Sequence record: OR539219.1
Strand: one strand, 5' to 3'
DNA from: Escherichia phage vB-Eco-KMB39
Length of the DNA: 64,000 bases
Shown here: piece after piece, positions 56,923 to 62,716 of the stretch
How the letters are laid out: every line of letters begins with the position of its first letter
Numbering within the stretch: position 1 is the stretch's first letter
Translations under genes and position numbers: made by a program
The notes under the pieces: generated by a model
What the model was told of the DNA's origin: nothing
What the model saw: only the letters and a program-made list of their open reading frames with translations
Databases searched by the model: none

Positions 56923-57110
56923 TATTCTTCTACATGTTGTTTACGACCTTTCTTATCAATAAAGGTATATTCAACGAATGTTCCAATGTAGTCTTTATCT
57001 ACATCATGTGGACTATTAATTGGGCATTTAGTACGGCAAATGCGTTCCCATTGACGAATAATTACTGCTTTGTTTTTAGGATCAAACGGATGCGGGTAAT
57101 GCACTTTCAT
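56898..57110 (-). CDS. hypothetical protein
   Basis: 70 aa ORF. Confidence 0.35.
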   Translation of the reverse strand: MKVHYPHPFDPKNKAVIIRQWERICRTKCPINSPHDVDKDYIGTFVEYTFIDKKGRKQHVEEYCLKVTWL

Positions 57111-57561
57111 AATCCACCACTATTAAATCAATATCAGGAGTAAACATGTCGATTAATTTAGAAACCTTATCCCAATCGCCGCCAGCAATACCACAACCTA
57201 TGCGTGGAATGTAAATTACCGGTTTAAACAAAAGGGTTTCTGCCTGTAGATTTAATTCTATCATGCAGTTTACTAAAGCACCATAATCAAGATTAGGACC
57301 TGGTTCGTATTGCGTATACAGGTTATAGCATATACCAAATCCCGTAGGACTATGTTTAAAAACAATAGACATATCGCCTAATTTATCACGAGAACCGTAC
57401 TCAGTAGTGGTTTTATCTATTTCTAAAATTTTGGGATAGGCTCTTGCTAATTGACCCGCTACGCCTGAACCCATAGTATGAAAACAATTGCACCCGTGCG
57501 CAATAATATTACCTTGAAGAAATAGGGCGACAATATCGCCCTTGATATATTTTACAATCAT
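57082..57561 (-). CDS. macrodomain protein (ADP-ribose binding/processing fold)
   Basis: 159 aa; glycine-rich motif HGCNCFHTMGSGVAGQLARAYP typical of macro domains. Confidence 0.5.
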   Translation of the reverse strand: MIVKYIKGDIVALFLQGNIIAHGCNCFHTMGSGVAGQLARAYPKILEIDKTTTEYGSRDKLGDMSIVFKHSPTGFGICYNLYTQYEPGPNLDYGALVNCMIELNLQAETLLFKPVIYIPRIGCGIAGGDWDKVSKLIDMFTPDIDLIVVDYESALPASV

Positions 57562-58450: not shown

Positions 58451-58912
58451 TCATTGAGTTTTAATTACTGCTTTAGAAGCCTTTCCTGGTAAACGACGAC
58501 TGTTGATAATTGCCATCCTACATTGAAGTGACGGGTCTTTGAACTTCTCATTAGGTTTACAAACTGTAAATCCAAGCCAAAGATTTCCATCTGTAATTTC
58601 TAAACGTCCAGGACGATATTCAACTCCATCAATAAAATCCTCATCAATGTCAGGACGCGGAGGCATACTCAGGAATTCATTAACTTCTAAAACATGGTCT
58701 TTTATTTTATGGAATAATTCAAAAACATATGTCTCATCAATCTCCCGTTGAATTGCACGATCAAGAAGATGTTGAGAATATTTTAGATGAAACGATGAGA
58801 CCCCTGCTGCTTTTGATGCCTCACGAATCTCATTGTTAATTTGACGAAACTCCGACTCAAAGTGACGACGAAGCTTATTTCGACGGATAAAAACTTCTGT
58901 ATTGATAGTCAT
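58451..58912 (-). CDS. regB: RegB site-specific endoribonuclease
   Basis: 153 aa equals T4 RegB; strong early promoter upstream. Confidence 0.75.
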   Translation of the reverse strand: MTINTEVFIRRNKLRRHFESEFRQINNEIREASKAAGVSSFHLKYSQHLLDRAIQREIDETYVFELFHKIKDHVLEVNEFLSMPPRPDIDEDFIDGVEYRPGRLEITDGNLWLGFTVCKPNEKFKDPSLQCRMAIINSRRLPGKASKAVIKTQ

Positions 58913-58971: not shown

Positions 58972-59292
58972 TTATTCTTTAAATCTAATCAATTTATTCA
59001 TAGACTTTGAAACTTCTGCACGAACCTCATGTAGATTTTTGAGCTGTTCAAGACGCTGCTCATAGTAAGCAATTTCATCTTCTTCGAGACAGTCCTGTGA
59101 ATCTTCTTTAAGATAACGTGCATAGTCCTGAAAAGCTTTACGGACTACTTCCTGGAAGTCATCAAGACTTTGAATTTTCTTAGGAGCGACAGATACACGA
59201 CGAGGTGCAGTATAATACTCATAACCAAACCCTGCACTTAATTGAGCCATTAGTATTTTTCCTCTGGTTGGAACACTGCACGACAAGCCCAC
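58972..59292 (-). CDS. hypothetical protein
   Basis: 106 aa ORF. Confidence 0.4.
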
Positions 59293-59552
59293 ATACTGGC
59301 TTCTTTGAGTTTCGTTTTAGCAATAGTTAACTGATCGAGGCTTTCAGCATAATTCTTCGCGAGTTCATCATCTTCACAGCTATCAAATGCTTCCCAAAAT
59401 TCATCGTATAAAGCATCAAAGATAAGTCCTAAACGAACTTCAGCGTCTTTGATAGCATTCACTTTACCGATTTTCTCTTCGGTATGCGGCTTATAACCCT
59501 TAATATCTTCAATCATATTTGACTTCCTCACCAGTACATAAATCATATTCAA
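59250..59552 (-). CDS. hypothetical protein
   Basis: 100 aa ORF; start may be internal. Confidence 0.4.
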
Positions 59553-59730
59553 CTAAACGAATAGGTTCATGAATGCCATATCCCTGAACAGAAATTTCTG
59601 TCGTAGGATAAATTCCATCAATATCACCCATATTCCAGGCTTCATTAAATTGCTGTTCGCCTGAATTACTAAACCACTCGGCGAAAGCATTTAGCACATC
59701 TTCAGAACCTTCAATAATTATCTTTGCCAT
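59509..59730 (-). CDS. hypothetical protein
   Basis: 73 aa acidic ORF. Confidence 0.4.
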   Translation of the reverse strand: MAKIIIEGSEDVLNAFAEWFSNSGEQQFNEAWNMGDIDGIYPTTEISVQGYGIHEPIRLVEYDLCTGEEVKYD

Positions 59731-60147
59731 TACAAACTCTCGGTGAAGGTACGAGCGATAACGTCGCGCTGCTGTTCCGGAGTCAGAGAGTTAAAGCGAA
59801 CTGCATAACCAGATACACGGATGGTCAGCTGCGGATATTTTTCCGGATGCTTAACTGCATCTTCCAGAGTTTCACGACGCAGAACGTTAACGTTCAGGTG
59901 TTGACCACCTTCAATTTTAACTAGTTTCACGACGCAGAACGTTAACGTTCAGGTGTTGACCACCTTCAATTTTAACTGTAGGTTGTGTTTCAATTTCAAT
60001 TTCACGGGCATGCAAACCGTAGAAAATTTCCGGGTCTACAAAAGAGTCCTCTTTAAAGGTTTTAGAGACAATAATTCGTGCTTGAATACCATCTTCAAAA
60101 TAAATAGTACCTTTATGTGTGCCTTCAAGAATTTGATATGCTTTCAT
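59730..60147 (-). pseudogene. autonomous glycyl-radical cofactor (GrcA/YfiD-like) gene split by a 55-bp tandem duplication
   Basis: track ORFs 59917-60147 and 59730-59930 both encode [18 protein letters not shown]; distal ORF ends [29 protein letters not shown]; joined frame restored by removing one repeat copy. Confidence 0.7.
59868..59977. repeat. perfect 55-bp tandem direct duplication (2 copies) inside the grcA-like gene
   Basis: unit agtttcacgacgcagaacgttaacgttcaggtgttgaccaccttcaattttaact seen twice back to back. Confidence 0.8.
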
Positions 60148-60154
60148 ATAAACC

Positions 60155-60481
60155 TCAATTAGAAAATAAATTTATCCAAGATTGTTCTTTAATTAAAAAC
60201 GGCTCAGAATCATATGCCATTAAACTTTGCGTAATTAATCCTTTAAAAGGTCCATCAATAAATTCCATGGTAAAATATGGAATTTTATTCATTAGCCGTG
60301 CATTAGGAGCAGTACATAAAACTCTGCATCCTTTGAATACACCTTTTTGTAATTTGTATTGCTTGGGATAAAATTCGCTCAAAATGTTATTATTTGCTAA
60401 AATTTCAAAATGATTCACCAATTTATTTTTAATAGTTTTTGGCGAAAAATAAAGATATTCGAAAAGTTGCGTATCTGTCAT
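60155..60481 (-). CDS. hypothetical protein
   Basis: about 108 aa from internal Met (MMTDTQ); track ORF start overlaps upstream gene by 55 nt. Confidence 0.35.
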
Positions 60482-61074
60482 CATTGCATTCCAATTACGA
60501 AAAACTGCGGACGAGTAATACCACCAATACAGCATTTACTATTGCAGCAATATTGCACAGTTTCAATATGAATATCGTAAATTTTATCCATATCAGGAGA
60601 TTTAACAGGCTCATCGATTATATACAAAATTCGAGAAAGCGATAAACCTCTGAACTTGCTACCTCTATTACCAACAAAACTACGGACAGAATCAGTAAAT
60701 AAACGGAATCGAATATCATCGCTAGAATAACGAGAAAATTCTTTTTTAATGCGGCCCACAGAAATTTTAGCGTAAGCTGAAGTATTAGAAAGAACAATAA
60801 CTGTTCCACCATCATACAACCAATTAGCGGCAAAATTAGTTACTGCAGTTGATTTACCGGATTGTCTGCCACCATCTAAACGAAGTGTACAATATTCTTT
60901 AAATAAATACGACGAATCAGGTACATAAAATCCACTATTACAAATTTCTTCTACTCTAGCGTCAGAATGGTGTGTAAAAGCATTCATCAGGGATAGATAA
61001 GGACCAGTTAAAAATGTTCTCATGTTATTTCTCTTAAGGTTTTTGGGCCATTCCGTGGCGCATGAATTGTCCAT
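60481..61074 (-). CDS. P-loop NTPase-like protein
   Basis: Walker A GGRQSGKST, Walker B-like ILYIIDEP; start may be internal Met at about 61023. Confidence 0.45.
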   Translation of the reverse strand: MDNSCATEWPKNLKRNNMRTFLTGPYLSLMNAFTHHSDARVEEICNSGFYVPDSSYLFKEYCTLRLDGGRQSGKSTAVTNFAANWLYDGGTVIVLSNTSAYAKISVGRIKKEFSRYSSDDIRFRLFTDSVRSFVGNRGSKFRGLSLSRILYIIDEPVKSPDMDKIYDIHIETVQYCCNSKCCIGGITRPQFFVIGMQ

Positions 61075-61167
61075 TTCTGTATTTACCCATTACCGCACTT
61101 GGGCTCGACCTTATTACAGGTTGGCGGGAATCCCTCATAGAATCATGAGGTCCAGGTTGTTCCCATA

Positions 61168-61641
61168 TTATTTGAACGATTTAACGTACTGAATAGAACC
61201 TTTACTATTTACAAAGGCAATTTTACCATTTTTATTATACATGGTAGCAGTACGCTGATAGCCATAAGTTTGCTTACCAGATTGATAACCAACTAATGCA
61301 AAATTATCTTCACCCATTTTATTCTGTTTAGCGCGAATGCGTTCATGACCATGTGCCATAAGAACCTTAGCATCACCAGTTACAATGGATCGACGAGTTT
61401 TTTCATCTTCAACTGTATTAACAAAGTCGTCAAATGAATCAAATTTAGCATGAGATTTATTATACAGTTTTCCATCTACTGCATAATTATATCCCTGTAC
61501 ATCCATCTCAACTTCTGTACCATCATCCAATACAGCAGTAATTTTCTGTCCTTTTTTAAATTTCAAAAGATCAGTAAAAGATTCAGCAATAATTTGAGAA
61601 TTAATAGCTGCTTCAGTGATAAATTCTTGATATGTTTTCAT
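61168..61641 (-). CDS. internal (capsid-packaged) protein with capsid targeting sequence
   Basis: 157 aa; N-terminus MKTYQEFITEA matches the T4 internal-protein targeting sequence cleaved after Glu; early promoter upstream. Confidence 0.65.
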   Translation of the reverse strand: MKTYQEFITEAAINSQIIAESFTDLLKFKKGQKITAVLDDGTEVEMDVQGYNYAVDGKLYNKSHAKFDSFDDFVNTVEDEKTRRSIVTGDAKVLMAHGHERIRAKQNKMGEDNFALVGYQSGKQTYGYQRTATMYNKNGKIAFVNSKGSIQYVKSFK

Positions 61642-61694
61642 GTGTTTCCTTTAAATATTTTAATTAGTAATTTGTCTCTTCAAGCAACTGTGAA

Positions 61695-61725
61695 TATACT
61701 ATCACAATTCTAGGAGAAAGTAAAC
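61695..61725 (-). promoter_or_regulatory. early promoter upstream of internal protein gene
   Basis: minus strand GTTTACT - 17 - TAGTAT. Confidence 0.45.
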
Positions 61726-61729
61726 AACT

Positions 61730-62260
<531 letters not shown>

Positions 62261-62716
62261 TTAAAAGAGGCTGTTCATTATTCGGTAAAGTGAAGGACCC
62301 ATCACATATTGCCACTGAGTACGAGGAATAAGAGCAAAAGCATCCATCTCTGGAATCATAACGCCATCTTTATTTTCAAAATAAGACTCGCAATGGCAAT
62401 TTCTGAACATCTCATGCTCTACTGGAATCGTATAATAAAATAACTGTAAGTCTTTATTACTAGAATATTTAAATACACCTAGGTCTTCTAGAAGGTCTGG
62501 ATTATAATTGCTAAAACCGGTCTCTTCTAAGCATTCTCTTTTTGCAGCTTCCAGTGCATTCAAATCAGAACTTTCTACACGGCCCTTTGGAATATCCCAA
62601 CGATGTGCCATCATTCCAGGCTTACGAGAACCAGTAACCCGACCCATAAATAAATCTTTATCTTCTGTCATAAAGATAATACCAGCTGATAGTGTTTTCA
62701 TTTTAATTTCCTGCAT
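62261..62716 (-). CDS. nudE: Nudix hydrolase
   Basis: 151 aa equals T4 NudE; Nudix box GRVESSDLNALEAAKRECLEETGF. Confidence 0.8.
   Translation of the reverse strand: MQEIKMKTLSAGIIFMTEDKDLFMGRVTGSRKPGMMAHRWDIPKGRVESSDLNALEAAKRECLEETGFSNYNPDLLEDLGVFKYSSNKDLQLFYYTIPVEHEMFRNCHCESYFENKDGVMIPEMDAFALIPRTQWQYVMGPSLYRIMNSLF

Follow-up and report, generated by a model that had tools for sequence, protein, structure and literature searches.

The locus between positions 60,155 and 61,167 of a 64,000-nt stretch of Escherichia phage vB-Eco-KMB39 (OR539219.1; this whole stretch is referred to as the window) carries two small genes, vs.7 (60155-60484) and vs.8 (60481-61023), which are separated from an ip4-type internal virion protein gene (61168-61641) by a GC-rich spacer. 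The spacer is occupied by a conserved, non-coding, pseudoknotted RNA of ~146 nt (61024-61169). All genes between 57 and 64 kb lie on the minus strand in an order that matches the T4 early region, and the region has the standard T-even early arrangement e - ip - RNA - vs.8 - vs.7 - vs.6. Coordinates are window positions, and the compared loci carry labels of the form Lnnn (L001, T4, NC_000866; L002, phage ESCO58, OM386666; L041, phage Ivi, PV841871). The initial annotation, made from the sequence alone, had pointed to two open reading frames (ORFs), Walker motifs, a hairpin and an excess of G+C at this locus, all of which are present in the sequence. The gene part of that description turns out to be ordinary and known; the spacer part is genuine and more extensive than stated there.

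The RNA element, encoded on the minus strand, comprises a 5' arm with helices P1 and P2, a pseudoknot, an invariant core, and a 3' domain with helices P5 and P6 that is found only in T4-like phages. The range first noted for the spacer, 61075-61167, is indeed non-coding and GC-rich (47.3% G+C vs 34.4% window-wide), but its limits are too narrow, since the real non-coding stretch runs from 61024 to 61167. The 100-nt interval 61050-61149, with 47% G+C, is among the highest locally. From the ip4 stop to the vs.8 start, the 144 intervening nt hardly vary across T4, this phage and three relatives, and a BLAST comparison of the spacer with 35 IMG/VR loci, found via the Vs.8 protein, gave 77-86% identity over ~80-120 nt. 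The element is kept in 38 of the 39 T4-like loci, even those in which Vs.8 is only ~40% identical; there, a 32-nt core stays 90-97% identical, and the nucleotide conservation of the spacer exceeds that of the flanking Vs.8 protein.

A covariance model built from 22 copies of the two sequence types absent from T4 and from this window yields a single match in the 64-kb window (61024-61169, minus strand, 99.4 bits, E 6e-30), which overlaps the ip4 stop codon (61168-61170) by two bases, and none on the plus strand. In the related loci it finds one match each, always on the gene strand, except for two tandem matches in L017 and L024 and none in L036. The latter (L036:2150-2500) is the only vs.8-bearing locus without the RNA, and a 92-aa ORF abuts vs.8 instead. 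Two tandem copies of the RNA body are present at L017:2211-2490, L024:2218-2496 and L037:2240-2500, and also in L131; the first copy lacks the 3' domain, and the second is diverged, with a much shortened P2 and a covarying P4' (GCC/GGC vs GUC/GAC).

Along the RNA strand, the elements follow one another as P1 (5'), pseudoknot (5'), the P2 hairpin, P1 (3'), P3 enclosing P4, P4' and GGUAA, a joiner, and pseudoknot (3'). In the 5' arm (61126-61164), GGGAA (61160-61164) pairs with UUCCC (61126-61130) to form P1, and CCUCAU (61145-61150) with AUGAGG (61133-61138) to form P2. The latter is the hairpin of the initial annotation (61133-61150), which is unremarkable alone and is now recognized as one conserved helix of a larger fold. 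The 5' strand of the pseudoknot, CUG (61153-61155), lies within the P1/P2 internal loop CAACCUGGA and pairs with CAG (61077-61079). The invariant core (61087-61124) is closed by P3 (CCA/UGG, 61122-61124 with 61087-61089) and contains P4 (ACCU-GUAAUA-AGGU, 61108-61121), then a C, then GAGCCCAAGUGC, in which the GC/GC pairs of P4' are formed, and finally GGUAA (61090-61094). The 3' domain (61047-61074) consists of two GGA-bearing hairpins: P5 (AUGG/UCAU, 61071-61074 with 61062-61065) has its GG inside the stem, and P6 (GCCA-CGGAA-UGGC, 61047-61059), a pattern that occurs once in the window, presents its GGA in the loop.

Comparison among the copies supports several of these predicted helices, and the pseudoknot, by covariation. 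All five pairs of P1 covary (AAAGG/CCUUU and AAGC/GCUU, with GGGAA/UUCCC in the T4/window type). P2 shows a paired one-base deletion (CUCA/UGAG to CUA/UAG), a C-G to U-A change in L118 (CCUUAU/AUAAGG) and a U.G pair in L003 and L004, while P3 occurs as CCA/UGG, CCU/AGG, CCC/GGG and CUGG/CCAG. The pattern of P4 across copies is ACCU-GUAANA-AGGU. In P6, a G-C pair is swapped for C-G in L015, and the A(N)GGA loop is carried on other stems in L013 and L025. In the model alignment of 40 sequences, 91.9% of the cells are paired and 17 of the 33 pairs have changed on both sides; the covariation score reaches 0.252, whereas slid partners give no more than 0.078, and the G.U pairs fit the gene strand only. 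The pseudoknot (columns 14-18 vs 119-123 of alignment A6) lies outside the fitted model and therefore provides a stronger test than the fitted helices. Its three central pairs are formed in 39, 40 and 38 of the 40 sequences, respectively, with four pair types at one position, and its covariation score is 0.456, compared with no more than 0.099 in the slid controls. The variants include CCG/CGG, CGC/GCG, ACAC/GUGU, CCUG/CAGG, ACCA/UGGU and CUCGA/UCGAG, next to CUG/CAG of T4. The spacer is thus a structured RNA, far more so than had been suspected.

Several observations weigh against this fold. The helices were defined by hand from stacked sequences, and the 40-sequence alignment was fitted to them. 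Since the sequences are related, the shuffle controls, in which none of 500 reached 0.252 for the helices and none of 500 reached 0.456 for the pseudoknot, overstate significance. The folding energy of the whole element, calculated for the single sequence, is no better than that of shuffles (z = 0.19), and the minimum-free-energy folds differ between homologues. RNAalifold, applied to the raw MAFFT alignment, recovers P4 alone of the proposed helices, together with two GC pairs in the P6 region and a long-range helix outside the model; this poor recovery is attributed to the misalignment of the T4 sequence type and the other two types in the 5' arm. Finally, in phages that are not T4-like, the proposed pseudoknots of 4-6 bp are insignificant when one sequence is searched at a time (p 0.2-1.0), so that the pseudoknot rests on the aligned T4-like set together with positional consistency.

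The element has no counterpart among the known RNAs that were searched. Rfam 15, including the tRNA, HDV-like (hepatitis delta virus-like), hammerhead, twister, pistol, hatchet and riboswitch models, gave no relevant match to the window copy (901 nt, E up to 10) or to 11 loci with diverged copies (E up to 1-5), and ARAGORN detected no tRNA or tmRNA at the element. Nor is the element an intrinsic terminator: no GC-rich hairpin with a U run, and no other terminator-like site, was found on the minus strand in 60000-62300, where P2 is followed by GAUUCCC and by no U run. No publication on an RNA at this locus turned up in the literature search. Judged by Rfam 15, the inspected deposited annotations and the searchable literature, the element is undescribed; as a further reservation, the ~10,000 unnamed candidates of PMC10690425 may already include the motif.

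The distribution of the element extends well beyond T4-like phages. A blastn search with one copy matched 1,021 phage records, most of the listed rows having nothing annotated under the match, from phages of Escherichia, Klebsiella, Shigella, Enterobacter, Yersinia, Salmonella, Citrobacter, Erwinia, Edwardsiella and Serratia. The weakest matches consist of the bare core and fall in Vequintavirus phages and in the 45-kb phage Ivi. A scan with the exact core pattern found 53 IMG/VR contigs and 40 metagenome contigs. Those of 38-148 kb, outside the T4-like size range, belong to two rV5-like groups, a ~46-kb group and Ivi-like phages, in addition to singleton lineages (L063, L077, L081, L086, L094, L112, L114 and L136). 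Inspection of these lineages shows further versions of P1 (GGGG/CCCC, GGAAC/GUUCC, GAAUG/CAUUC or GAGUG/CACUC, GAGGG/CCCUC, AGCGC/GCGCU), of P3 (including GCG/CGC and ACC/GGU or ACU/AGU) and of the pseudoknot (CUCCGG/CCGGAG in Ivi, GCCAG/CUGGU in isim). The core is found in rV5-like, ~46-kb, Ivi and other phages that have no vs.8, and the RNA is independent of that gene. Among 185,579 bacterial species genomes there was one chance-level core match, against ~1.6 expected by our own estimate, and 5,426 complete E. coli genomes gave no blastn match. Collectively, these data identify the ~105-nt body as a mobile RNA module common to unrelated virulent enterobacterial phages.

Outside the T4-like phages, the RNA is frequently associated with tRNA genes. 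Of the 14 such loci in the viral and phage collections, 10 have same-strand tRNA genes within ~600 nt; of the 17 metagenome loci, several of which are too short to judge, 10 have them no farther than a few hundred bases away. In L081 and L136, ~10 nt separate the end of a tRNA from the start of the RNA, and in L077 and L114 the RNA lies inside tRNA arrays. In Ivi it is flanked upstream by a terminator and, as read from the sequence, a promoter-like TTGATA-17-GATTAA, and downstream by an intrinsic terminator of its own; in L081 and L086 an intrinsic terminator follows the RNA directly, in L081 within ~15 nt of the pseudoknot. The 3' part of the Ivi RNA (L041 ~1575-1590) includes AUCACCUCCU, which matches the anti-Shine-Dalgarno end of 16S rRNA exactly, and the T4-like versions instead carry Shine-Dalgarno-like AAGGA loops. 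In the ~46-kb group (L048, L056, L069, L074, L079, L097, L105, L121 and L132), a conserved GTGCYNTTTCCGTTGTGRYGAA-like repeat is present on both sides of the RNA and may be a phage-specific promoter or regulatory repeat that marks off the RNA unit.

Taken as a whole, the locus is probably best explained by the known T-even gene order combined with a non-coding, pseudoknotted, mobile RNA that would function as a stable RNA. The role proposed for this RNA is tentative. It would be cut out of the early transcript, or would outlast it, as a stable RNA in the way that tRNAs do, and its invariant core would then engage, in trans, some conserved host factor with a part in tRNA biology, translation or immunity directed at tRNAs; the RNA could serve, for instance, as a decoy or sponge. 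The unpaired core nucleotides are invariant across phage families that share almost no proteins, which suggests a host rather than a phage partner, and the tRNA-array setting suggests tRNA, translation or tRNA-directed defence. In T4-like phages, the conserved RNA sequence would additionally serve as a fixed homology anchor adjoining the exchanged ip/denV cassettes, and such a fixed flank would explain why the exchange always stops at the same base. It is rather more doubtful that the element represents a new class of horizontally mobile, pseudoknotted phage RNA, travelling with tRNA arrays and acting either as a catalyst or as a decoy or sponge against a conserved enterobacterial factor such as a tRNA-directed immune nuclease. 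If this were true, it would constitute an RNA-based counter-defence common to unrelated virulent coliphages and present even in T4. The T4 genome is one of the best studied, yet in it the ~146-nt element has been left unannotated or mis-annotated as the N-terminus of Vs.8. The scale is considerable, since the core matches over a thousand deposited phage genomes, and the role of tRNA arrays in evading tRNA-targeting defences is a current question. The covariance model, the exact T4 coordinates and the tractable host make the function directly testable.

The alternative with the best remaining standing, although an unlikely one, is a cis-acting leader, either riboswitch-like or a protein-binding operator, which would control the translation or stability of the downstream gene (vs.8-vs.7 or ip); on this reading, P5 and P6, the GGA-loop hairpins, would offer Shine-Dalgarno-like or CsrA-type sites in their loops. 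In T4-like phages, the RNA is separated from the tRNA cluster by ~5 kb and directly precedes a gene start in every case; this position speaks against the stable RNA proposed above and suits such a leader equally well. The element ends 20-30 nt before a start codon in all T4-like loci, its GGA hairpin region is recopied before vs.8 where an ip gene has been inserted (L019, L021, L023 and L027), and the P6 loop A(N)GGA is kept despite a changed stem (L013, L015 and L025). Furthermore, the terminator of L081, within ~15 nt of the pseudoknot, resembles an expression platform. However, different lineages have unrelated genes downstream (vs.8, ip genes, small hypothetical ORFs, tRNAs), and those of Ivi apparently have their own promoter past the terminator, as judged by reading the sequence. 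Copies outside the T4-like phages have the conserved body but no 3' GGA domain; a weak Shine-Dalgarno sequence of its own precedes vs.8 at conventional spacing, and L036 has vs.8 but no RNA.

A self-cleaving or processing ribozyme with an HDV-like strand order, trimming transcripts beside tRNAs, is less probable still. The element has the nested double-pseudoknot topology of HDV-like ribozymes, with the same strand order P1-P2-P3-P1-P4-P2 (the mapping of the helices is inferred), its core of unpaired nucleotides is invariant, and it abuts tRNA 3' ends (L081 and L136) or lies within tRNA arrays elsewhere. A precedent is the theta ribozymes of gut phages, which adjoin phage tRNA genes as the element does and which reportedly (Kienbeck et al. 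2024) trim transcripts next to tRNAs. In contrast to HDV-like ribozymes, the joiner, which is GCU, GUG, GUU, UUUACAUA or UAAAUA depending on the lineage, has no conserved catalytic C of the J4/2 type, and the first P1 pair, at +1, is G-C or A-U and not G.U. Moreover, the most conserved part corresponds to the dispensable P4 of HDV, and none of the HDV-like, hammerhead, twister, pistol and hatchet covariance models of Rfam responds to the window copy or to the eleven diverged loci.

An element functioning only at the DNA level, as a recombination or homing site or as a recently exchanged segment, is very improbable. It would agree with the position of the element at the exact edge of the ip/denV cassette exchange and with its tandem duplicated or chimeric state in L017, L024, L037 and L131, but it leaves unexplained the compensatory changes in at least five helices and the pseudoknot and the G.U pairs that fit one strand only, as well as the conservation across phage families without common flanking DNA. 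The least probable of all is a protein-coding stretch, whether the T4-style 219-aa extension of Vs.8 or a 34-aa basic peptide (MRDSRQPVIRSS..., 61034-61138) whose ORF is present in the window, since 38 of the 40 copies have stops in all three frames, the other two T4-like sequence types stop 7 codons past the equivalent ATG, the family-wide Vs.8 start is an invariant M(R/K)TFL, and the would-be wobble positions are invariant while the changes are paired across helices.

The T4 copy itself (L001 4799-4944, T4 ~64,798-64,943) is one of the two exceptions with an open frame. In the T4 RefSeq entry, the vs.8 coding sequence (219 aa) starts at an ATG inside the element, within helix P2, and runs through the RNA for its first 39 residues, whereas the protein has 179-181 aa here and in most relatives. 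As T4 is one of only two open copies among 40, this extension is probably an annotation artefact, and work with 'full-length' T4 Vs.8 may express RNA-derived residues.

With regard to the genes, the initial annotation had placed the P-loop ORF and the 126-aa ORF in the position of denV and ipII, as a replacement. Both are instead conserved orthologues of known T4 genes that lie beside denV in T4, where vs.7 and vs.8 are located between vs.6 and denV. The program-made ORFs (126 aa at 60155-60535 and 197 aa at 60481-61074, both on the minus strand, the latter containing GGRQSGKST and ILYIIDEP) extend too far at their 5' ends; PHROG profiles and family alignments start at M18 of both. The P-loop ORF is 86% identical to T4 Vs.8 (NP_049732) over 183 aa (E 3e-121) and matches PHROG 1488 (E 3e-77); after trimming to 60481-61023 (minus), its product is a stand-alone ASCE P-loop ATPase of 180 aa (Walker A, DGGRQSGKS; Walker B, ILYIIDEP). 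The 126-aa ORF shares 108 of 109 residues (99%) with T4 Vs.7 (NP_049731), with which its 109-aa product (60155-60484, minus) is collinear, and it matches PHROG 2049 (E 5e-54). Homologues of Vs.7 carry Pfam PF26834; the local Pfam copy gave no family for Vs.7, and the structure prediction was uninformative (predicted local distance difference test, pLDDT, 45; 3 usable homologues). The vs.8 TGA and the vs.7 ATG overlap as ATGA, as in T4, and at least 32 of the 40 loci have a vs.7 homologue right behind vs.8; the arrangement suggests a conserved pair that is probably translationally coupled. A megablast search with 60100-61700 matched 885 phage records, 309 of which cover at least 80% of the query and share this gene arrangement, the best being Escherichia phages ECP52 and G4507 (99.9% identity).

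Alignment and profile matches assign the P-loop protein to the known Vs.8 family and not to a new gene. In an alignment of 29 members, DGGRQSGK, R114, R125-G126, I135, E138 and the terminal G178/Q180 of the FFVIGMQ tail show no variation, and I136 and P139 show almost none. The window protein shares the family length (~175-185 aa), the start M(R/K)TFL, the Walker B I-I-D/E-E-P and the C-terminal FFVIGMQ, and its gene shows the synteny of the family, with the ip/denV cassette before it and vs.7 directly after it. The AlphaFold2 (AF2) model is a single RecA-like domain (pLDDT 84.4), and Pfam Terminase_6N scores 16.3 bits, under its cut-off of 22. Vs.8 is a minimal ATPase of ~180 aa, remotely related to the ATPase domain of terminase large subunits. 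In contrast to these, which have ~450-650 aa and a C-terminal RNase H-like nuclease, Vs.8 has 180 aa, one third of the size, and no nuclease domain (compare the T4 gp17 N-terminal domain, PDB 2o0h). A profile search of Vs.8 against PDB sequences gave no match, and Foldseek returned only generic P-loop and helicase matches. The family is small, with 55 clusters at 50% identity among 1.84 billion representative proteins and no terminase among these 55 profile matches; the clusters are 160-185 aa long, apart from truncated fragments and three longer proteins (up to 259 aa), and homologues with a named organism almost always come from a T4-like phage. A 2026 preprint describes T4 vs.8 as an uncharacterised, ATPase-like gene homologous to the terminase ATPase, reports that it is toxic when co-expressed with the E. 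coli defence protein EcAvs2, and raises an anti-defence role as one possibility (bioRxiv 10.64898/2026.04.30.721860). The P-loop protein is thereby placed in a family just linked to the Avs2 immune sensor. The lineage-specific injected or anti-defence function suggested initially is retained only in its last part: the gene is not lineage-specific, injection finds no support here, as Vs.8 lacks the N-terminal MKTYQEF targeting sequence, and the gene may have an anti-defence role, as raised in the literature.

The variable part of the locus is the upstream cassette. The ip4-type gene (61168-61641, minus) encodes a 157-aa protein that matches Pfam DUF7412 (E 2.5e-95) and PHROG 3155, 'internal virion protein' (E 2e-101), is named Ip4 in phage SA20RB, and starts with MKTYQEFITEA; this capsid-targeting N-terminus, MKTYQEFI(A/T)EA, is absent from both Vs.8 and Vs.7. 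Homology with T4 covers window positions 60938-61168, up to the T4 denV stop, and returns at ~61610 within the MKTYQEF coding sequence of ipIII. Between these breakpoints, T4 has denV, ipII and ipIII (1,441 bp) and this phage has the ip4/DUF7412 body (441 bp). Only the upstream cassette differs from T4, the breakpoints being the first base after the upstream stop and the shared capsid-targeting coding sequence. The earlier failure to recognize endonuclease V is borne out, as a tblastn search with DenV found no DenV-like sequence in the whole window (best E 3.8); in the relative MLF4, denV sits between e and ip4. The description of the internal-protein locus as a hot spot of replacement likewise holds: one ip4/DUF7412 gene stands in place of denV, ipII and ipIII, and the 39 related loci carry denV and various ip genes in many combinations upstream of the spacer and vs.8. 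In four loci (L019, L021, L023 and L027, ~1920-2500), an extra ip gene is located between the RNA and vs.8, and a short copy of the GGA-hairpin region (e.g. GCCAAGGAAUGGC) recurs just before vs.8, as though the 3' domain were part of the gene-start module.

Among the remaining neighbours in T4 gene order are the lysozyme gene e (61730-62224, minus) and regB (58451-58912, minus), with vs.1, vs, tk.4 and small vs genes also present. The grcA-like glycyl-radical cofactor gene vs.6 (59730-60147, minus) is split by a perfect 55-bp tandem duplication (59868-59977; 2.0 copies, 100% match), which shifts the frame and yields ORFs of 76 and 66 aa. The best 12 matching records listed, including ECP52 and G4507, span 226 bp against the 281-nt query and are free of the duplication, which is either a private mutation or an assembly artefact. 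In some GenBank records (e.g. ESCO58, OM386666), homologues of vs.1, vs.7 and vs.8 are labelled 'endoribonuclease', which neither sequence nor fold supports and which probably spread from the neighbouring regB. By T4 synteny, the 100-aa ORF at 59250-59552 (minus) is vs.4, which we take to be Acb2, an anti-CBASS cyclic-nucleotide sponge, and the 159-aa ORF at 57082-57561 (minus) is tk.4, a macro-domain protein; the RNA and vs.8 thus lie within a stretch rich in host-takeover and anti-defence genes.

Several apparent resemblances of the RNA were considered and dropped. Mimicry of the tRNA-Tyr anticodon loop (CUGUAAA in P4) is incompatible with the loop and stem geometry, and the resemblance to the 530 loop of 16S rRNA is limited to GCGGUAA. 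A T4 early promoter inside the element would require GTTTAC, which is present in just one of the three T4-like sequence types, and a partnership with Vs.8 of the kind known for phi29 pRNA is at odds with the presence of the RNA in other phages that have no vs.8.

In comparison with known systems, the upstream variation is the classical ip-locus polymorphism of T-even phages, reportedly described by Repoila et al. in 1994. As there, cassettes of ip and denV genes are exchanged between conserved flanks, and the shared MKTYQEF coding sequence is one of these; the difference is that the other flank is a structured RNA gene, which to our knowledge had not been recognized before. The P6 and alternative hairpins resemble the GGA-loop hairpins of CsrB/RsmZ, which are binding sites of CsrA, with A(N)GGA in a short loop, 2-5 motifs per T4-like element and the GGA of the P6 loop in nearly all T4-like copies. 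Unlike CsrB/RsmZ, the element has few repeats, its motif is also Shine-Dalgarno-like, and the domain is absent from copies outside the T4-like phages. T4 itself encodes the stable RNAs C and D (rnaC and rnaD), small phage RNAs of unknown function in the tRNA gene cluster. Compared by sequence only, they are unrelated to the element, which matches T4 only at the vs.8 locus and, in T4-like phages, lies ~5 kb from the cluster; like the element, however, they are small phage RNAs linked with tRNA clusters.

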